Positions 9,533-17,520 of a stretch of 64,000 nt of DNA are shown piece by piece. Under the pieces are notes generated by a model. The model did not search any database. It saw nothing but the letters and a program-made list of their open reading frames with translations, and was not told the DNA's origin. Numbering within the stretch: position 1 is the stretch's first letter; every line of letters begins with the position of its first letter. Source of the DNA: Reclinomonas americana ATCC 50394 (Eukaryota); contig PS015010.1 in the NCBI GenBank assembly GCA_048213135.1, positions 1,488,001 to 1,552,000 on the forward strand, in the 5' to 3' direction. The position numbers were made by a program, and so were the translations under genes.

Positions 9533-10597
9533 ATGAAAAAAACAGGCTTTGCCATAACAGGCATTTGCTTTTTATTGATGATCATGAGTTGCACCGGTAC
9601 TGCCCAGAAACAGACGTTCGATCTTGTCTCCTACACATTGCCCAAAGGCTGGCAGCAACAAAAGCAGGAAGGCGGAATGCAGTTATCCGTTACAGATAAA
9701 AAAACCGGGGCTTATGCCGTAGCGGTGATCACTAAGGCTATTACTTCGACTTCATCGGCCGGCGAAAATTTCAACGCGGACTGGGCAAAACTGGTGAAAG
9801 GCACTGTCAATGCAGACAGCGACCCCACTATGACGGAACCTTCAAAGGATAAAGGCTGGGACATTATTTCCGGCAATGCAAATTATACCGATGGCACCAG
9901 TAAGGGGCTGGTCACTTTAATAACCGCATCCGGTTATGGTCAGACGACCAGCGTTGTACTGATGACGAATTCACAACAATACCAGGATGACCTGCTTGCA
10001 CTGATCAATTCACTGGACATGGCATCCTCGCCCAAAAGTGCAGCCGGTAATACTACCACAACAACTTTGCCGGGCACCAATCCTTCTTCCCTCTCAGGCT
10101 TATGGGTAGATTACAAAGTGGAGAGCAGTGGTTACGTAAGTGGTATGCCAATGGTTACTGCCGGGTATTTCAGGAAAGAATACAATTTATACCCCGACGG
10201 CAGGTACATGTACCGGGCAAAGAACTGGTCCGTTTTGCAAAAGGAAATATTATTCGTTTATGAAACAGGTACCTGGAAAGTGAATGGCAACCAACTTACC
10301 ATTACCCCCAAACAAGGTAAGGGAGAATGGTGGAGTAAATCCGCAAGCGGCAGAACCAGTGAGTGGGGCAGCAGGGCAAAAGCGGCAGACTACCCGCTGG
10401 AAACTGTTACCTATACTTATGATCTACATTATTATTCCGGTTCAAAAGATACTGCTCTTATACTGAAGGGCAACAGCGCTACAGAACGCGATGGCCGCAG
10501 CAACAGCAACAACCAGGCAAACAGCTGGAGTTACAGTCCCCGTGCTGCTGGCAAATCACTAATTGATAATCCGCCTGGGTTTAAGGCTGGCTTTTAG
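9533..10597 (+). CDS. exported hypothetical protein (possible lipoprotein)
   Basis: MKK + hydrophobic stretch ending IMSC; two domains joined by a Thr/Ser linker; followed by a hairpin terminator. Confidence 0.75.
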   Translation: MKKTGFAITGICFLLMIMSCTGTAQKQTFDLVSYTLPKGWQQQKQEGGMQLSVTDKKTGAYAVAVITKAITSTSSAGENFNADWAKLVKGTVNADSDPTMTEPSKDKGWDIISGNANYTDGTSKGLVTLITASGYGQTTSVVLMTNSQQYQDDLLALINSLDMASSPKSAAGNTTTTTLPGTNPSSLSGLWVDYKVESSGYVSGMPMVTAGYFRKEYNLYPDGRYMYRAKNWSVLQKEILFVYETGTWKVNGNQLTITPKQGKGEWWSKSASGRTSEWGSRAKAADYPLETVTYTYDLHYYSGSKDTALILKGNSATERDGRSNSNNQANSWSYSPRAAGKSLIDNPPGFKAGF

Positions 10598-10625
10598 AAA
10601 GTAGATTTCAATTTCCGAAAAAAAT

Positions 10626-10660
10626 AAAAAAGCCTCTGAATATCCAGAGGCTTTTTGTGA
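10626..10660. terminator. bidirectional hairpin; near copy of the hairpin at the tRNA-Lys 3' end (likely left island boundary)
   Basis: aaaaaa-gcctctg-aatatc-cagaggc-ttttt-gtga, versus aaaaac-gcctctg-gaatatt-cagaggc-gttttc-gtga at 17357-17393. Confidence 0.75.
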
Positions 10661-10779
10661 ATCATATGACAGTAACCGGCCATTGGTACAAATGCTGCAA
10701 GTAATAGGGGAAAAATCCCCTTGTCTTACAGGATTATTCCCCCCGCTCTATTTAGTAGTTTTATCCAATATTCCTTTTC

Positions 10780-11370
10780 ATGAGTAACATAAAAATATTC
10801 ATCGCTTCTTCAGCAGAATTGGAGGAAGACCGTAAGGCAAGTGCTTTGCTGATCGATGAGTTAAACAAAACCTATCCCCTATTAAATCTCGAACATGTAA
10901 CATACGAGTTAGATACGCCCTCAGGAAATGCCCCAGCGCATAAAGATTTACAGGATGCCATTAATACTAAACTATACGAATCGGAGGTAGTAATATTCCT
11001 ATTCTATACAAAACTTGGAAAATATACACTACAGGAACTGGACGTAGCATTGGACCGGAAGAAAAAAGTTTTTGTCTACTTCAAAAATGGGTTTACACCC
11101 AGGAACAATGAAGAAGAAGAAAAATATAATGACCTGATAGCCCTTAGAAAGAGATTCAATGAGGAGGGTAAGATAAGATGCCAGGATTATAATGACACAA
11201 AGGAGTACTATGGCAAACTCCTTATGGACCTGCATAAATATATATCTGGAACACATAAAGCCGCGCTGGATATACCCGGAATGAAAATGGCAGTAAAAAA
11301 CGGAGGCGATGGGAATATCACTCTTATCGAGTCCAAAGTCGAAAATATAAATTCACAAATAAGAAAATAA
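10780..11370 (+). CDS. DUF4062 / TIR-like (nucleoside deoxyribosyltransferase-fold) domain protein
   Basis: IKIFIASSAELEEDR ... QDAIN..LYESEVVIFLFYTKLGKYTLQELDVA ... VFVYFK pattern; low-complexity N/G/I C-tail. Confidence 0.7.
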   Translation: MSNIKIFIASSAELEEDRKASALLIDELNKTYPLLNLEHVTYELDTPSGNAPAHKDLQDAINTKLYESEVVIFLFYTKLGKYTLQELDVALDRKKKVFVYFKNGFTPRNNEEEEKYNDLIALRKRFNEEGKIRCQDYNDTKEYYGKLLMDLHKYISGTHKAALDIPGMKMAVKNGGDGNITLIESKVENINSQIRK

Positions 11371-11380
11371 GCCAGGTAAA

Positions 11381-12362
11381 ATGCCGGAGTTAAATTCAAA
11401 TAGCATTGAAGAAAATTATAACCCCGACTTATCGGAGGAAGGTATTCCTGAAAGCAAATCTTCAGAAAAGAATGACGCTCTGGGTGATGACAAAGACGAG
11501 TTGGATAGTGAGGAAATTGAAAATTCTTCCAATGTCCAAAATTACGGAGACGGAAATATTACCGCAATCAAGTCCGAAATTGGCGGGATAATTAATAATC
11601 ATATTACAATAGGACTTGATGAAATTCTACTTAATAGCTTAAGAGCCAGGCCTGGTGACTATCCTAATGTGGATGCGGACTTCAATAGAGAATATAAAAA
11701 TACACTGGCACATATAAAGAATAAGCTGAGGGATAAAGACTTTGATAAAGCGTATGAATATTGCCAAAAGGCTGAAGATCTGGCTCCGGCGGAATCCGCT
11801 ACCTGGGAATATTTTGCCCTGACTGAATTTCTGCGTGAAATCAATAAAAAAGAAAAAAGAAAAAGAAAACCGGTACGGGAGATTGTAAGGGCTGTAAAAA
11901 AATCATCTCGAAAAAGGAAAAGACCACGGTTTAAGTGGAATAAAGTATGAAGAAATAACCAATGATATAGCAAACCAGTTGTTTAAACTTCAAAGAGCAA
12001 GGATTAACTCTATCGGTCCTTCTTCAAGAGATTCTAACGGAATTGAAATATGGGGAGGTGCTGAACTTCGGGCCTGTTTGTTTTTTTTGACTTCCTATGA
12101 ACAATGTTTCATTTTAAACCCGGAAGTAAAATTTCTTGAGGAATATGTTGCTGAACTAAGTAAGCCATATAAATGGATTGTGAGGAATTCGCAGGGAAAT
12201 TTATTAAGCAGACCAGTATTTGGTAATTTTTCCGCAGTTGAAAAAAGGGATAACCTGTTGACAAAACTGAGGTCTTTAAATTCCACTTTTCAGCCAGTTG
12301 AAATTAAAGAAGAGCGAATTACTATTCTACCAGATCTCATAAGGGTAATTTCAATCGAATAA
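11381..12362 (+). pseudogene. helical (TPR-like) protein split by a +1 frameshift in an A7 run (ORFs 11381-11950 and 11979-12362)
   Basis: Removing one A from 11896-11902 gives ...RAVKNHLEKGKDHGLSG...IANQLFKLQR, in frame with the second ORF. One TPR-like unit DFDKAYEYCQKAEDLAPAESATWEYFA. Confidence 0.7.
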
Positions 12363-12380
12363 CAATCTTAATACGACAAA

Positions 12381-13493
12381 ATGAAAGAATTACAGTTTAA
12401 ACTTCCTGGTGGCAAAACCCTGAGGGTTGAGTTAGAAGAAACGGTCTTGGTAAATGCTTTCCTCCTGAAACTGAAAGAGGATCAAATACTTGATTCAACT
12501 AAGCCATTCATACTAAGCTCGTTATCAGGCAGCATTATTTCAGAAAGCACCCCGTTTAGATTCCTGCAGGATGAAATGTACTTAATCACTGAACAAAGCC
12601 CGGATGCGATTATCGTCCAGGAAGAAGAGAGCAAGTTAAAACAACAGTTTAAAAATAAATCACCAATGGATTCAGAAATATCACCTAAATATCCCGGGAA
12701 CGTAATACAAAACACAGAGCCCAGAACCGGAGATAAAATCATAATCCCTCCTGGTAAATTAGCTGCAAAATGTGAAGATCATAATTTTGAGAAAAGACGA
12801 AATGTGGCTTTGGACAATAGTAGTGTTATGAATACCTGGATAAAGATTCCCCGCTGCAAATTTATGTCTGACGATCCTTTAGCGAAAAGAGCAAAGGAAA
12901 TAAAAAAGAAAATACAGGAAGGGAATAGCATTTCAATCAGTAAAACCGGGGAAGTGAATCCCACTCTGACTGACACCAGTAAAACCGGGAAAAATATCCA
13001 GATCCCCCCGGGAAAATTGGCCAATTTTTATTGGTATCAGCGGGATCGTGAGCTTTATGAAGCGGAAATAGAAGCAATGAATCTTTCTTTTCCTGCGTTC
13101 AAACTAAAAAAGCTTGATGATGGAAGATTGTATTGGGAAGGTGATATACAACCAAAAGTATGGGGCAATACAAGTTATCGCTTATTGATTGTATACGATA
13201 ACAATCATCCCAGTACAAGTACTTATGGTGGTTCTGTAAAATGTTACTTAGTTGACCCTTCCATCGAGGAACTGGAAGCCAAACACGGCAGAGTTCTTCC
13301 TCATATTATGAAAGACACTGCGAATAACAGGTATTTATGTACTAATTCCACTGAGATTTTTAAAGATTCTGCAACACATAGTACCTCAGCATCTACATGC
13401 CTGAGATGGGCCGTCAAGTGGCTTCTCGTTTATGAATTGTTCGATGCAAAAGAAATCTCATACACCGAATTTTCTAGTCACGATAAGTTTTAA
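12381..13493 (+). CDS. ubiquitin-like N-domain + repeated IPPGKLA linker + E2 (UBC-like) C-domain
   Basis: N-terminal ~70 aa has a beta-grasp-like pattern (LQFKLPGGKTLRVEL...). C-domain has E2 hallmarks: ELYEAEIEAM..FP, LYWEGDI, IVYDNNHP, PH-x10-LC (Cys320). Confidence 0.7.
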   Translation: MKELQFKLPGGKTLRVELEETVLVNAFLLKLKEDQILDSTKPFILSSLSGSIISESTPFRFLQDEMYLITEQSPDAIIVQEEESKLKQQFKNKSPMDSEISPKYPGNVIQNTEPRTGDKIIIPPGKLAAKCEDHNFEKRRNVALDNSSVMNTWIKIPRCKFMSDDPLAKRAKEIKKKIQEGNSISISKTGEVNPTLTDTSKTGKNIQIPPGKLANFYWYQRDRELYEAEIEAMNLSFPAFKLKKLDDGRLYWEGDIQPKVWGNTSYRLLIVYDNNHPSTSTYGGSVKCYLVDPSIEELEAKHGRVLPHIMKDTANNRYLCTNSTEIFKDSATHSTSASTCLRWAVKWLLVYELFDAKEISYTEFSSHDKF

Positions 13494-13498
13494 TCCAT

Positions 13499-14461
13499 AT
13501 GCATGAAAGCAATAAAATAGTTTTTTCTAACAGAGCCTTTAACTCAATTGTATGTGAGACTTACGATAGAATCGCTACAGAAACAGGCGGAATATTGCTG
13601 GGAAGCACTATTGACGGCATTTGGTACGTAGTGGAAGTAATAGATCCCGGCCCTGGCTCGATCTTCACGATTTCTTATTTTGAATACGATACGGCTTATG
13701 TTAATCATCTTGCAAAAGTAATTTCGAAACAATACGAGATTGAACTCGCAGTTTTAGGTTTATGGCACAGGCATCCAGGATGCATGGATACTTTTTCCCT
13801 GACTGATAATATTACAAATACCGAATTTTCAAAACTGCTCCCAAAAGGGGCATTGTCAGGATTGGTAAATATTGATCCTCTACTACGCCTGACTATGTAC
13901 CATGTTTCTTTTCCGTTAAAATATACAAAACTACCTTTTGAAATTGGAGACCACCTGTTTCCTTCCGGCTTATTGAAATACACTCATTCATTTTCGCAAA
14001 AGAGCAGTTATAGCGGGATGCCCCAACCGGCCTATGAAGCAACATTAATTATTGAGAAACCAAACCCGGTGAGATCCATATTTAATAAATTCGTCTACCC
14101 CATTTTTAGAAAATTCAAAACTACTGGTGTCCGTGACAGCTATTCTCCAAACATTAGCAATGCTCCTGGAATGAAAGAGAAGGACGAAGATCATTTGATT
14201 GACTTATATGCGTATGAAGAATTGCAATTGGAAAGCAACTTTAAAGCAAAGTATGAAAGCGAGGTAAAAGACAATAAGATTATTTATAAGATAAATGAGT
14301 TGGGTGATGGCCTGAACCCTGAATTACCCATTTTCTTCACTGTCAACTTAGACCCTGCTAATCCAATTTTTCAATGTACAGATATAGACTATAAGTTCAG
14401 CCCAGGAATATTTACAAGGTATGTTGACAGTAAAATAGAAAATAAACAATTCAAAGGTTAA
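13499..14461 (+). CDS. prokaryotic JAB/MPN+ metallo-isopeptidase with C-terminal extension
   Basis: ETGGILLG, VIDPGP, GLWHRHP-x5-S-x2-D complete JAMM motif. Confidence 0.9.
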   Translation: MHESNKIVFSNRAFNSIVCETYDRIATETGGILLGSTIDGIWYVVEVIDPGPGSIFTISYFEYDTAYVNHLAKVISKQYEIELAVLGLWHRHPGCMDTFSLTDNITNTEFSKLLPKGALSGLVNIDPLLRLTMYHVSFPLKYTKLPFEIGDHLFPSGLLKYTHSFSQKSSYSGMPQPAYEATLIIEKPNPVRSIFNKFVYPIFRKFKTTGVRDSYSPNISNAPGMKEKDEDHLIDLYAYEELQLESNFKAKYESEVKDNKIIYKINELGDGLNPELPIFFTVNLDPANPIFQCTDIDYKFSPGIFTRYVDSKIENKQFKG

Positions 14462-14471
14462 TTCTGCAAAG

Positions 14472-15707
14472 ATGAATCCACTAAAGCCAGTTAACGAACA
14501 TGCACCCCGCGTTTTTTTTCCGGAATTCCTTTTGGAAAGTGACTACTGTGGTAGCATCTTGGGATACTATCATGCAAACACATCCGTATTTAATATTATT
14601 TGCACAGACGAAGTAATAAATACAGCGCTCGCAGGCGCCAATGCGATAGGGCAAATAATAAACATTGACGAAAATGGAGTTTTTTTTAAACCCACTCGAA
14701 ATATTGAGTATGCCGGCCAAGAGAAAGAAGTAGTGCACTTTGTTGAAAAACCAAGTCTGGGTCAAACGCAAATTCTCGGGATCAGAAAAGGAAAAAATAT
14801 AGACTTTTTCACAAGTAAAGGCGTTAAATGCGAATCTGAACCTTATTCGTTGATTAACGACGTGTTTTCCAGGAATACTAATATACTGGAGACGAGTTTA
14901 ATGTTAGAGAAAACGGTTATCATTTCAGGTTGTGGCTCTGTTGGAAGTTTGGTTGCTTTGGAACTTGCAAGAGCGGGTGTTGGAAAATTCTTGTTAGTAG
15001 ACTATGACCTAGTATCCTATCACAATATTTGTCGTCATCAATGCAGTATTACTGATGTTGGCAAATATAAAATTGATGCGATTGAAGAAAGAATATTACA
15101 AATTAATCCAACTGCGCAAATTGGAAAGTCATACAGCATCATTGAAGAAGTTCCTGAAAAAACATTTCTGGAGTTCTGCAGCAAAAATTCCATTATTATT
15201 GGATGTGCTGACAACAGAGAAGGAGATCTGTATGCGAATTTCATTTCTAAGCTTTACAAGATTCCTTTCTTATCGATCGGTTTTTGGGAAAGGGCGTTTG
15301 CTGGCGAAATATTTTACACGCTTCCAAATGGCATGCCATGCTACAAATGCTTTTATGAAGAAATTGGTGTAGTTATAGAAAGGCCTGCCAATAGGAAATA
15401 CTATACTAATGAAAAACATTTAGAAAAACTGAATTTTGAACCTGGGATTTCGGTTGATATAAATTTTGTAACAACGATTGCTATCAAGCTCGCAATAGAT
15501 ATCCTCAATATTGGCAATGAAAGTTATATTCCAAAAGTGATCGACCACCTTGATCAGTTTACCCTGGTATGCAATACCATTGATGAAAGAATTGGAGGAG
15601 AACAATCTGAATACTTTTCATACCCGCTACAGGTAAGAAAAGGGATTGACATAATCTATTGCTCAAAATGTTTAGAAAAAGAATTTTGCGTTCTGGTAAC
15701 CGAATAA
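14472..15707 (+). CDS. ThiF/E1-family adenylyltransferase
   Basis: GCGSVGS, LARAGVG, VDYDLVSYHNICRH, GKYK, GCADN, zinc pairs CYKC and CSKC. Confidence 0.92.
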   Translation: MNPLKPVNEHAPRVFFPEFLLESDYCGSILGYYHANTSVFNIICTDEVINTALAGANAIGQIINIDENGVFFKPTRNIEYAGQEKEVVHFVEKPSLGQTQILGIRKGKNIDFFTSKGVKCESEPYSLINDVFSRNTNILETSLMLEKTVIISGCGSVGSLVALELARAGVGKFLLVDYDLVSYHNICRHQCSITDVGKYKIDAIEERILQINPTAQIGKSYSIIEEVPEKTFLEFCSKNSIIIGCADNREGDLYANFISKLYKIPFLSIGFWERAFAGEIFYTLPNGMPCYKCFYEEIGVVIERPANRKYYTNEKHLEKLNFEPGISVDINFVTTIAIKLAIDILNIGNESYIPKVIDHLDQFTLVCNTIDERIGGEQSEYFSYPLQVRKGIDIIYCSKCLEKEFCVLVTE

Positions 15708-15718
15708 CTTTTCTAGAA

Positions 15719-17170
15719 ATGTCATTCCGCATAGATATAAATGGTGAAATAATCAGGGATAATCAAAATCAAGCTACTGCCCCTAACCCCGGTCCCGAGG
15801 AACGACATTTCAACTTTTTGTGGATAGCGCTGGTATTAATTGTCGTTTTTATTGGATACAAGGTAATATCAAATTTAATTGGAAAGAATGACTATCGCAA
15901 TTCCCGGCAAACTACTTCAACCCAAAGCCCTGGTAATTCTCCATACTTGCAACCATCAACAAGCAATTCCACTTTTTCATCCTCTGCCGAAAATCAAAAT
16001 GGAGTTGAGGATCATAAAGTAATAATTTTAAATGGCAAATGGGTCCAGATTGAGGAAGCAAACCATGGCACCCGTAACATTGGTTTAGCCATTTTATTCC
16101 AGGAAAATATTGGAACAGTTATTTATGTCCCCAATTCCTCATCCCCTTACCATGCAGGCCAGGTAATATGGAAAGATTTTGACCCTGAAAGGCAGTGGAT
16201 CAAGCAATACATTACCACTTCTGACAATTACCTGAACATTGAAATCAAGTTCAAAGATTCTAACACTATCGATTTATATGGGAATATCTTTCGAAGACAG
16301 CCTTCTCCCGAAAGCGAAACTACGCAAGCTGTTACCCCTTACCCGGATAAGGAAAAAATTGAGGCCGATCTGTTAGGAAAAAAAATGACAAACTGGAATT
16401 TTGACTACCTCCAAGAATTCCAGGACTTTAATATTCTGCACGAAGAAATAAGCGATGGTTACCTGTACCAGACGATAGAACTTAAGTTGGTAGATTTAAA
16501 TACCAGTAACAATTATAATTCTGAAATCGTAGTAACATACTTAAACGCGAATAATGGGTGGGAATTTGTTAGTGTTAAGCAAAATTCATATTCCCAAATT
16601 CCAGCATCAACTCCTCCGGTAGAAAATGGTACAAATCAGGATAATGCCCCTGTTTCGGTAACTCCCTCCGCGCCCGAAAGAAGTAGTTCAAACAAGGATA
16701 AGAGTTCTGTTCCGTCAACTTCTAATAATTTCTCGGGTCACTATTCAGGAATAATATTTAATAAAGGCTATACGAATATTGGCGACTATATTTATTACAG
16801 AACAAATAATTGTAGCGTGGATGACGTGTTTTTTATGGACAGGAATGACAATAAAGTTTCCGGCAATATTGTAAATGAGGGGCAGCCCATATATTTATCA
16901 ATGACCCTGGGTAAATTTACAAAAAGAAGCGAAAAATTCCGTTATTCCATATCCAGCTATATGGAAGATGAGGAGGGTACCGTTTATGCCAAATCAGAAA
17001 ACGTAGTTTCTGAATCTTCTACACCTTATTTGGGTATCGCAATTGGAGGAGGCTTACGCAGGCTACCTGTAAACACAAGAAGTTTGAATATATATATAAG
17101 TTTTAGAATCGATGATAAATTCTCTGATGCTAAATTAGAAGGTTTTTATAAAATAGTTGTGGTGCGTTAA
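15719..17170 (+). CDS. single-pass membrane protein with several extracytoplasmic domains
   Basis: ATG 11 nt after the E1 stop; TM FLWIALVLIVVFIGYKVI; Ser/Thr/Pro linkers separating three beta-rich segments. Confidence 0.75.
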   Translation: MSFRIDINGEIIRDNQNQATAPNPGPEERHFNFLWIALVLIVVFIGYKVISNLIGKNDYRNSRQTTSTQSPGNSPYLQPSTSNSTFSSSAENQNGVEDHKVIILNGKWVQIEEANHGTRNIGLAILFQENIGTVIYVPNSSSPYHAGQVIWKDFDPERQWIKQYITTSDNYLNIEIKFKDSNTIDLYGNIFRRQPSPESETTQAVTPYPDKEKIEADLLGKKMTNWNFDYLQEFQDFNILHEEISDGYLYQTIELKLVDLNTSNNYNSEIVVTYLNANNGWEFVSVKQNSYSQIPASTPPVENGTNQDNAPVSVTPSAPERSSSNKDKSSVPSTSNNFSGHYSGIIFNKGYTNIGDYIYYRTNNCSVDDVFFMDRNDNKVSGNIVNEGQPIYLSMTLGKFTKRSEKFRYSISSYMEDEEGTVYAKSENVVSESSTPYLGIAIGGGLRRLPVNTRSLNIYISFRIDDKFSDAKLEGFYKIVVVR

Positions 17171-17189
17171 AAACGCCCTCTACATTAAC

Positions 17190-17349
17190 ACCATAATCTT
17201 CCTTATATTTTAAAACCCGGGAAGTATCGGCAGAAGTAAATTTGGAATGACCAATATTATGCTCATACAAACGCCGGTCAAGACCAGTACAGGCACCAAC
17301 AATAGTATTTCCCGAGCTTTTCTGAATAAATAATGTAAACAAAGGGCAT
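17190..17349 (-). pseudogene. GIY-YIG nuclease pseudogene
   Basis: MPFVYIIYSEKLGKYY [extra T] VGACTGLDRRLYEHNIGHSKFT...VLKYKEDY; frameshifted and lacking the C-terminal E...K helix. Confidence 0.8.
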
Positions 17350-17390
17350 GAAAATGAAAAACGCCTCTGGAATATTCAGAGGCGTTTTCG

Positions 17391-17463
17391 TGATCCCGCT
17401 GGGACTCGAACCCAGGGCCCATACATTAAAAGTGTATTGCTCTACCAACTGAGCTACGGAATC
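17391..17463 (-). tRNA. tRNA-Lys(TTT)
   Basis: Cloverleaf gattccg/cgggatc, D arm gctc..gagc, anticodon arm ataca-cttttaa-tgtat, T loop ttcgagt. Confidence 0.97.
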
Positions 17464-17489
17464 AGCCGTACCGTTTTTAAACGGGAGTG

Positions 17490-17520
17490 CAAAAATAAGA
17501 CAAAAACACATTGCATCAAA
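17490..17520 (-). promoter_or_regulatory. Bacteroidota sigma-A promoter of tRNA-Lys
   Basis: TTTG (-33), 19-nt spacer, TATTTTTG (-7) on the minus strand. Confidence 0.75.

Follow-up and report, generated by a model that had tools for sequence, protein, structure and literature searches.

Working bacterial E1/E2 conjugation enzymes have so far been assigned to three families, type II CBASS (cyclic oligonucleotide-based antiphage signaling systems), Bil and Bub, and each of these has altered the view of how ubiquitination originated. We analyzed a 64,000-nt stretch of an assembly of Reclinomonas americana ATCC 50394 (GCA_048213135.1, contig PS015010.1, positions 1,488,001 to 1,552,000 of the forward strand; hereafter the window), in which a run of genes at 10780-17170 encodes an E2, a JAB peptidase, an E1 and a membrane protein behind three short open reading frames (ORFs). 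Judged from its sequence, the core of this locus (12381-17170) belongs, as we are slightly inclined to think, to a widespread and still unnamed family of protein-tagging modules of bacteria, equipped with a small modifier of their own. We are confident that the module family is real and distinct; by analogy with described systems, the balance tips modestly towards a short unit ahead of the E2 domain, ending in PxGKLA (the tag unit), as the modifier that is conjugated. The module would then be a fourth family of its kind, with enzymes nearest to CBASS Cap2/Cap3 and a minimal, probably non-beta-grasp peptide as modifier, and it would raise the question of whether an E1/E2 pair needs to recognize a fold or the C-terminal tail alone.

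As set out in excerpts of the published accounts, Cap2 of type II CBASS conjugates cGAS, a non-beta-grasp protein, via its C-terminal Gly or Ala (PMC10097602), and BilC trims the residues that follow a conserved Gly of type II BilA (10.1101/2023.09.26.559546). In type I Bub, a pre-protein of ubiquitin-like protein (Ubl) and E2, BubAB, is cleaved after a conserved Gly by the JAB domain of BubCD, and the Bub E2 and E1, which lack catalytic cysteines, act through oxyesters (excerpted text of PMC11601596). Bub modifiers contain 1-3 beta-grasp domains, again according to excerpts. A preliminary description of our locus had singled out a Ubl-E2 fusion as a distinguishing feature, which the existence of BubAB and its cleavage by a JAB domain contradicts (PMC11601596, same excerpts). 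The secretion system of type VII (T7SS) has an essential ubiquitin-like component, whose role is given as unclear, and a ubiquitin-fold protein occurs in most variants; in the excerpted text the variants are described without E1, E2 or JAB, and the terms ‘ThiF’ and ‘JAMM’ occur 0 times (PMC11217815).

The genes of the locus are as follows.

10780-11370, + strand: ORF1, 196 aa
11381-11950, + strand: ORF2, 189 aa
11979-12362, + strand: ORF3, 127 aa; frame open from 11898 (154 codons), first start codon TTG at 11979
12381-13493, + strand: gene for the putative tag-E2 pre-protein, 370 aa
13499-14461, + strand: JAB/JAMM peptidase gene, 320 aa
14472-15707, + strand: ThiF-type E1 gene, 411 aa
15659-17170, + strand: ORF of the membrane protein (503 aa), likely start ATG 15719 (483 aa)

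All genes are co-oriented, with gaps of 10, 18, 5, 10 and 11 nt along the operon, and the ORF coordinates bear out the tight co-oriented arrangement (gaps of 5-18 nt at 10780-17170) that had been proposed. ATG 15719 is taken as the start of the membrane protein because it lies 11 nt past the E1 stop and puts a conserved motif, discussed below, at residue 5, as in relatives.

The conjugation enzymes and the closest described systems

The 370-aa tag-E2 protein is divided as follows.

12381-12692, + strand: N-terminal ~104 residues, orphan sequence
12693-12764, + strand: partial tag unit, residues 105-128, ending IIIPPGKLA
12837-13022, + strand: full tag unit, residues 153-214, with a helix at 166-179, a hairpin around G190 and the tail IQIPPGKLA
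13023-13490, + strand: E2 (UBC-fold) domain, with the catalytic Cys320 at 13338-13340

PADLOC E2 models match residues 227-357 (down to E 9.4e-16), and an AlphaFold2 (AF2) model of residues 217-365 has a predicted local distance difference test score (pLDDT) of 80-94. The best structural match of this model is a CBASS E2, chain 8yjy_B (probability 1.00 and target TM 0.60 in Foldseek; VIA Z 9.7, root-mean-square deviation 3.6 over 133 residues), followed in the structural ranking by UFC1, the Tsg101 ubiquitin E2 variant (UEV) domain and Cap2. All 50 VIA rows listed are E2 or UEV folds, and the proposal that the C-terminal domain of the product of 12381-13493 has a UBC fold is thus upheld. Residues H276, P277, H308 and C320 are invariant in an alignment of 18 sequences (A1), so the earlier choice of Cys320 as the catalytic residue was right. 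Among 5.8 billion proteins, the nearest 25 show 29-63% identity to the query over its C-terminal 50-76%. Family PF26395, which the Atlas names E2-CBASS, is found on 24 of these 25, and the family assignment of the window protein is made through these homologues, the Atlas neighbors included. Searching PDB sequences with the E2 profile at E ≤ 1 gave two chance matches to Myc (E ~0.8) and nothing else. No relatives of the E2 were found by tblastn in phage (50,697) or plasmid (72,556) records, nor were any found in IMG/VR viral contigs.

The JAB protein matches Pfam Prok-JAB just above the cut-off (E 9e-6; 26 bits, cut-off 25) and PADLOC JAB models down to E 2.9e-9. Its JAB domain occupies about residues 1-140, in which E28, H90, H92, S100 and D103 are invariant in 39 homologues, while the C-terminal ~180 residues vary widely among them. 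The E1 consists of an N-terminal domain of ~125 residues and an adenylation domain (Pfam ThiF, E 7.1e-28), with an invariant GCGSVGS loop and invariant R134, D177, R188, K200 and D247 in 42 sequences. MoeB, UBA5, ThiF, MccB and Cap2 are its nearest PDB sequences; MccB is matched at E 1.2e-9, PaaA at E 3e-7 and BubCD at E 5e-4. The JAMM and ThiF motifs first noticed in these two proteins are therefore genuine, and with catalytic and nucleotide-site residues kept both across homologues and in the window, E1, E2 and JAB all look active.

By enzyme sequence and structure, the closest described system is CBASS Cap2/Cap3. Going by its homologues, the E2 would belong to the E2-CBASS family, its best structural match is a CBASS E2, and E1 and JAB match the PADLOC models for CBASS E1-E2 and JAB. 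In addition, the C-terminus conjugated in CBASS is a Gly or Ala on a non-beta-grasp protein, and here a C-terminal Ala is conserved. The differences are equally clear. As already noted in the preliminary description, neither a cyclase (CD-NTase) nor a separate Ubl nor a sulfur-cofactor family is matched in the seven window proteins (Pfam, PADLOC and NCBIfam). Cap2 is an E2-E1 fusion, whereas here E2 and E1 are separate genes with JAB between them, an arrangement seen in 46 of 47 complete loci of related genomes (see below). The presumed substrate is a peptide of ~55 residues fused to the E2, with no nucleotide-activated effector, and JAB scores only 18.1 bits with the NCBIfam Cap3 model (cut-off 200), though its homology to JAB proteins is clear.

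By pre-protein logic, type I Bub (BubAB, BubCD, BubE) is the closest system, since it too has a modifier-E2 pre-protein and the tag unit (residues 153-214) stands directly before the E2 domain; JAB and E1 are fused in BubCD and also in one related locus (L003). However, the Bub E2 lacks a catalytic Cys, which is invariant here in 18 sequences; the serine protease BubE (DUF6527) has no Pfam match at E ≤ 1 in the seven window proteins; the Bub modifier is made of beta-grasp domains while the tag unit appears as a helix and a short hairpin in a model of only moderate confidence (pLDDT 62); and the E1 match to BubCD is weak (E 5e-4). By gene order, modifier-E2-JAB-E1, the closest system is Bil (BilA Ubl, BilB E2, BilC JAB, BilD E1). 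BilA, however, is a free-standing beta-grasp protein, whereas ORF3, which precedes the E2 gene in the window, has neither a family match nor a C-terminal Gly. BilB (8tz0_C) appears at Foldseek rank 28 (probability 0.18), and none of the 36 PDB sequences matched by the E1 at E ≤ 1e-3 is BilD. Models of two other systems score far below their thresholds: the PRTRC ThiF model TIGR03736 gives 23.9 bits (cut-off 144.75), and the 6A-MBL model cap2_3 (NF058523) gives 47.6 bits with JAB and 62 bits with E1 (cut-off 320), with no metallo-beta-lactamase match. T7SS (EsaB/YukD) is approached in another way, as 15 of 52 related loci lie beside genes for an FtsK/SpoIIIE ATPase and WXG100 proteins, both of which the window lacks.

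Two further candidates were dropped: a sulfur-carrier pathway, for which Pfam and NCBIfam gave no ThiS/MoaD or cofactor genes among the seven window proteins, and a CBASS remnant, given the missing CD-NTase, the missing Cap2 fusion and a Cap3 score below threshold.

The E1/E2/JAB module was matched as a system by no curated model and no open paper searched, in line with the initial view that it stands apart from described systems. The PxGKLA tag, an E2-JAB-E1 module without CD-NTase, E1/E2/JAB genes beside WXG100/FtsK and the PrsW link described below are all undescribed in the open literature searched, which did not extend to the supplementary operon tables of the Bil and Bub reports or to subscription-only papers. 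One practical consequence concerns annotation: proteins in such loci that are automatically named ‘Type II CBASS E2 domain-containing’ are not part of CBASS.

A putative modifier ahead of the E2

Ahead of the E2 domain stands a unit of ~55 residues: an acidic patch comes first, then a basic helix (consensus ..LKxKRxELKxKLLxG), a hairpin with a Gly turn and, as the tail, hxhPxGKLA. The last such tail leads without a break into FYWY..., the helix with which the E2 domain opens. Alignment A1, made without reference to the motif, shows units in tandem; there hxhPxGKLA stands both before and after the unit, G190, L213 and A214 are invariant and G211 is nearly so. The full unit of the window protein scores 69.8 bits with a hidden Markov model (HMM) of the unit, in whose alignment the window row is itself included, and the partial unit scores 15.8 bits. 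Upstream of these, residues 1-104 are unmatched by the unit profile, and residues 1-120 find no counterpart either in homologues (proteins of 203-648 aa) or among PDB sequences at E ≤ 10. The AF2 model of this region has a strand-strand-helix over residues 1-44 (pLDDT ~67 for 1-40), with values mostly below 50 from residue 45 to 162. The preliminary description had called the N-terminal ~80 residues a Ubl-like domain; a modifier-like element is indeed fused to the E2, but it is the unit at residues 153-214.

The unit profile finds the unit in all 52 related loci, and by regular expression it is fused to the E2 in 40 of them. E2-bearing frames contain one (24 frames), two (15) or three units (1), and further copies occur in metagenome proteins. 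In eight loci the unit is instead a separate small gene directly upstream of the E2 gene. The free-standing ORF stops exactly at ...GKLA in five of these (L015, L019, L020, L038, L039) and one or two residues past it in the other three (L010, L027, L030), and in L019, L038 and L039 the E2 begins at the FYWY helix. Among 1.84 billion proteins, the profile matches 237 cluster representatives at E ≤ 1e-3 (82 at E ≤ 1e-10). Of the best 150 of these 237, 148 were inspected, and 72 are ≤100 aa; 24 of the small proteins end exactly at the tail and 16 more within 1-4 residues of it, although some may be fragments. Residues past the Ala are not conserved, conservation stopping exactly at the tail. No Pfam or NCBIfam family covers the tag proteins.

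An AF2 model of a free tag of 66 aa, built from 47 aligned units, has a pLDDT of 62 and a predicted TM-score of 0.30, with one helix and a short hairpin. When E1 was modeled together with the tag unit (residues 160-211), ATP and Mg, with alignments unused, the prediction scored 0.00 and gave no answer; it counts neither way on binding.

A small tag with a conserved tail has a parallel in Pup of actinobacteria, which has ~60 residues, is largely unstructured alone and is attached through its conserved C-terminal tail. Pup is ligated by the glutamine-synthetase-like PafA and not by E1/E2. The enzymes here are of the ubiquitin type.

Several variants of the unit were seen in passing. A CxxCxGxG zinc-finger segment follows directly after GKLA in L042:1832-2260; the unit forms the N-terminus of an internally repeated protein of 281 aa between JAB and E1 in L041:10005-10847; and L004:4081-4797 encodes a 238-aa protein with two units and no E2 domain. 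Partial matches to the tag profile, at positions 16-56 (the helix-hairpin), recur in P0165 (3844 aa, 6 stretches) and P0169 (1364 aa, 8 stretches), which could be unrelated helix-hairpin repeats or giant poly-tag proteins. L001, the closest relative, contains a second, truncated E2-like ORF (L001:3984-4271) of 95 aa that has a PKGKLA junction of its own and overlaps the full tag-E2 gene at its end; it could be a duplication remnant or an assembly artefact.

Distribution, membrane partners and neighboring genes

Related loci were collected by scanning one genome per GTDB species, with JAB and E1 called by phmmer using the window proteins. Among the 52 loci obtained, JAB was found in 49 and E1 in 47. 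All three genes are present in 47 loci, 46 of which have them in the order E2-JAB-E1 on one strand, the remaining one (L003) encoding a JAB-E1 fusion. Among the five loci left over, four run into a contig end, and L027 has no detectable JAB or E1 within 8 kb. The co-occurrence of homologues that the preliminary description asked of a neighborhood survey is thus found, and no gene besides E2, JAB and E1 is kept across the related loci. According to record titles and tree labels, the loci come from about ten phyla: Bacteroidota, Ignavibacteriota, Bacillota, Actinomycetota, Acidobacteriota, Cyanobacteriota, Melainabacteria, Pseudomonadota, Planctomycetota and Campylobacterota. A quick tree of E1 sequences joins the window to L001, a metagenome-assembled genome of Chitinophagaceae (SH-aLRT 100; E1 identity about 68-70%), and sets the pair within a group that is mostly Bacteroidota.

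In most related loci E1 is followed by the gene of a membrane protein, with varied architecture: membrane types include DUF4234, CD225 and DUF2085 as well as single-pass proteins with PD40/DUF5050, SH3_3 or BACON domains. The window protein (483 aa; start MSFRIDINGEIIRD) has no family match in Pfam, PADLOC or NCBIfam and a large C-terminal part rich in Ser, Thr and Asn. Two of its features concern us here.

15731-15757, + strand: N-terminal hairpin motif IDINGEIIR
15809-15883, + strand: hydrophobic segment, about residues 31-55, identified by eye from the translation

This one hydrophobic stretch agrees with the single-pass topology proposed at the outset. Comparable N-terminal motifs occur in partner proteins elsewhere (e.g., INEYGEIIR, IDDSGQIHR, GPDGRIIRR), and the L001 counterpart has the same motif and a similar hydrophobic segment with a different C-terminal/outer domain. 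By eye, the motif is present in about 31 of 46 loci. A strict regular expression, written after instances including that of the window had been seen, matches 16 of 46 genes at position +1 and 5 of 45 at +2 after E1, and 0 of 40-46 at each position from -5 to 0; in total there are 29 matches against 1.5 in shuffles. Its one match in the six frames of the 64-kb window is at residue 5 of the membrane protein encoded next to E1. With an HMM made from 20 instances there are 29 matches at ≥10 bits, from 20 loci, and 0 in shuffled proteins; 19 are at +1 and 6 at +2, and most start within residues 1-10. A conserved cytoplasmic handle combined with outer domains that vary is what a sensor or anchor acting alongside the tagging enzymes might look like, and the variability of the outer domains suggests that the module reports on or controls an envelope event.

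Other recurrent neighbors are also associated with membranes. In 15 of the 52 loci (L005, L006, L008, L009, L010, L013, L015, L019, L020, L021, L037, L038, L039, L042, L044) the module lies beside a co-oriented FtsK/SpoIIIE ATPase gene (~1000-1340 aa, Pfam E 1.4e-23; a 211-aa piece in L006) as well as genes of small WXG100 proteins (E 9e-8, 3e-9) and of related helical ones; examples are L042:5470-8925 and L010:3980-4258. In the E1 tree they fall on branches of Acidobacteriota, Actinomycetota, Bacillota and Bacteroidota. In six Bacteroidota loci (L013:9979-11124, L014, L017, L021, L023:10471-11673, L050), a PrsW-family intramembrane metalloprotease (Pfam E 4e-39) is encoded between JAB and E1. 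A fused E2-like domain (E 2e-5 to 8e-4 in BLASTP against the window E2) makes up its C-terminus; lacking a Cys at the catalytic position, this domain is UEV-like. The fusion suggests tag-directed intramembrane proteolysis. Neither FtsK/WXG100 genes (phmmer, E ≤ 1e-3, six-frame ORFs of the whole 64-kb window) nor the PrsW fusion was found in the window.

The neighbors that recur are thus membrane proteins, WXG100/FtsK genes and PrsW proteases, not known defense effectors, and the FtsK/WXG100 and PrsW genes point to membrane proteolysis or secretion instead of nucleotide signaling. Across 94 upstream ORFs (18 PADLOC families matched at E ≤ 1e-5, all listed) and 116 downstream ORFs (27 families matched, 25 of them listed), no CD-NTase is among the listed families, nor is one among the top 25 Pfam families of either flanking set. 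Matches to defense models (HEC-07, NsnC, AbiEi, mads, pVip, IetA, AriA) are scattered through the flanks of the relatives, each in just 1-2 of the 94 or 116 ORFs. Pointers to a role at the envelope are, taken together, the breadth of the family (237 tag clusters, 52 species genomes), its regular membrane-protein partners with a common N-terminal motif and, in Bacteroidota, Acidobacteriota and Bacillota, its recurrence by WXG100/FtsK genes and PrsW-E2-like fusions.

The three genes ahead of the tag-E2 gene are of another kind. ORF1 weakly resembles DUF4062/TIR-type N-terminal domains: residues 4-165 match the N-terminus of PADLOC PDC-S60 (E 3.7e-11) and DUF4062-named Atlas clusters are found at 0.93, while Pfam TIR_2 scores 15.8 bits (cut-off 28) and DUF4062 is unlisted among its Pfam matches at E ≤ 1. 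It has two detectable homologues among 5.8 billion proteins. ORF2 has an acidic N-terminus, a motif in common with ORF1 and then a helical part that scores 12-13 bits with Pfam TPR (cut-off 27.8). Of the labels used in the preliminary description, TIR-like has the PDC-S60 and Atlas matches and a Pfam score under the cut-off (15.8 against 28 bits), and TPR-like has a Pfam score under the cut-off (13 against 27.8). The common motif of 19 residues is found at two places.

11293-11349, + strand: motif in the C-terminus of ORF1 (residues 172-190), VKNGGDGNITLIESKVENI
11534-11590, + strand: motif in ORF2 (residues 52-70), VQNYGDGNITAIKSEIGGI

The copies are identical at 11 of 19 positions (BLASTP E 4e-4; core GDGNITxIxS), which suggests that the two proteins pair; neighboring effector and partner genes with a common short signaling motif are a layout known from elsewhere. 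Between ORF2 and ORF3 the reading frame changes by a +1 shift at or near a run of seven A (11896-11902, + strand), and ORF2 and ORF3 are probably one gene broken by this frame change. None of the contigs compared from public sequencing runs spans the A7 run, which is touched by a 24-nt piece of an unrelated 5.6-kb contig of run X2. ORF3 is without family match in Pfam and NCBIfam, is unmatched by the tag-unit profile and does not end in Gly. With ORF1, ORF2 and ORF3, phmmer (E ≤ 1e-3) found no match in any of the 52 related loci. ORF1 and its frameshifted partner are accordingly best seen as apparent additions specific to this locus, outside the conserved system, of which the TIR-like gene and helical partner had originally been taken to be members. 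They are tied to the tagging module by adjacency and co-orientation alone, and may be an output particular to this locus or an independent cassette.

Proposed mechanism, alternatives and limits of the islet

If the PxGKLA unit is a modifier, JAB would cut the tag-E2 pre-protein at the GKLA tail, after Ala214 or Gly211, and so free both the tag and the E2 domain, as suggested by analogy with BubCD cutting BubAB and BilC trimming BilA. By analogy with Cap2 acting on the C-terminal Gly/Ala of cGAS, the E1 would adenylate the C-terminal carboxylate of the tag, which would then move as a thioester to Cys320 of the E2. The E2 would attach the tag to a target, the leading candidate being the N-terminal, cytoplasmic region of the neighboring membrane protein, or else proteins that it recruits, and JAB may also reverse the modification. 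A more far-reaching version, offered tentatively, is that bacteria of at least ten phyla use a non-beta-grasp PxGKLA tag of ~55 residues, encoded as poly-tag-E2 or as a small gene, released by JAB and activated by E1, that marks the cytoplasmic N-terminal hairpin of diverse transmembrane receptors and controls PrsW proteolysis and FtsK/WXG100 secretion, the window copy having recruited a TIR-like output. If true, the inactive E2 domain fused to PrsW would be tag-binding, and the link between ubiquitin-like proteins and T7SS would gain an enzymatic basis.

A number of observations weigh against the tag as a modifier, or against the part assigned to the membrane partner. The model of the free tag, itself of only moderate confidence, has a helix and a short hairpin and not a beta-grasp; the unit may fold only upon binding, or may be a docking peptide and not a modifier. 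Ubl tails do not usually have K-L-A behind the Gly, as is conserved here. In the unit alignment A4, the invariance of P, G, L and A is in part built in, since its units were collected with a regular expression requiring P.G..[LFM][AGN]. The window E2 carries a single full unit behind ~100 N-terminal residues that are unexplained. The hairpin motif was, as stated, formulated from instances already seen, and the window membrane protein scores 6.7 bits with its HMM, under the level never reached by shuffles. Finally, the locus could be in decay, since one operon gene carries a frameshift.

The first of these points leads to the rival that we take most seriously, though we think it unlikely, namely that the PxGKLA units are docking, scaffolding or autoinhibitory elements of the E2, while the enzymes conjugate the C-terminus of another protein (as Cap2 does with the CD-NTase) or act on a non-protein target. 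The tag model is not a confident globular fold, the unit hairpin resembles the N-terminal hairpin of the partner membrane proteins and could reflect a common docking site, and the substrate in type II CBASS is an enzyme and not a Ubl. Against this, the unit is a separate gene product ending at the tail, or ≤2 residues past it, in eight loci and ending at the tail in at least 24 small cluster representatives, and conservation stops exactly at GKLA. The other window proteins end in ...IRK, ...SIE and ...VVR, not in Gly/Ala, and no other gene is conserved with the E2-JAB-E1 triad. A RiPP-like (ribosomally synthesized and post-translationally modified peptide) maturation pathway would account for the short substrate candidate with its conserved C-terminus by making the GKLA peptide a precursor whose C-terminus is modified by an MccB/PaaA-like E1, with JAB as leader peptidase and the membrane protein in export or immunity. 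We give it very little weight: MccB (E 1.2e-9) and PaaA (E 3e-7) are among the PDB matches of the E1, but MoeB, UBA5 and ThiF outscore MccB, an E2 whose catalytic Cys is invariant occurs in every locus, in most cases with the peptide fused to it (40 of 52 loci by regular expression), and no transporter family recurs in the flanks.

Two other rivals concern the locus as a whole. All six genes could form one anti-phage system in which conjugation controls a TIR-like nucleotide-cleaving effector, as their tight co-orientation (gaps of 10-18 nt), the AT-rich islet beside a tRNA gene, the match of ORF1 to the N-terminus of a PADLOC defense candidate, the 19-residue motif shared by ORF1 and ORF2 and the scattered defense-model matches in the flanks of relatives might suggest. 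We regard this as quite improbable, because ORF1-3 have no phmmer match in the 52 related loci, each defense family is matched by just 1-2 of 94 or 116 flanking ORFs, the recurrent neighbors are membrane proteins, WXG100/FtsK and PrsW, the partner gene is frameshifted, the TIR assignment is under the Pfam cut-off and the E2 is unmatched in the phage, plasmid and viral-contig collections. The same frame change at the A7 run, together with degenerate extra units and an orphan N-terminus in the E2 protein and the few or no relatives of ORF1 and of that N-terminus, could instead mark a decaying, non-functional remnant of a horizontally acquired island. This is hard to reconcile with E2, JAB, E1 and membrane ORFs that are full length and retain all invariant residues, with an E1 about 68-70% identical to its nearest relative and with a homopolymer frame change that may be an assembly error, and we consider it highly improbable. 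We therefore keep to a tagging module with its own modifier as the explanation of the core, at the strength given above.

The locus coincides with a block of low GC content (0.35-0.40 over 10500-17500, with 36-39% GC in the islet, against 0.46-0.51 on either flank), as had been said of an AT-rich islet beside tRNA-Lys. The features at its limits are the following.

10627-10656: left hairpin, terminator-like, where the GC content falls; ~40 nt similar to the right hairpin
17357-17389: right hairpin, terminator-like, adjoining the 3' end of tRNA-Lys
17390-17463, - strand: tRNA-Lys(ttt)

The two hairpins have ~40 nt in common, with a core roughly 85% alike, and bracket a 6.7-kb low-GC block; they may be insertion or island boundaries. 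A search for direct repeats of the att type turned up nothing convincing, only the two similar hairpins standing out, and no integrase gene lies inside the low-GC block. Between the membrane gene and the tRNA, a 70-aa ORF on the minus strand (17130-17342) overlaps the end of the membrane gene by ~40 nt and has, judged by eye alone, the appearance of a small GIY-YIG-type protein. Contigs of public run X1 cover parts of 12870-17182 with no differences. Identical pieces of the JAB, E1 and membrane genes (14202-14559, 15082-15359 and 16479-16627; 0 differing letters) are also found in contigs of two other public runs, X2 (labelled as a wastewater metagenome) and X3 (another organism), which indicates that the same or a near-identical element is present in other samples.

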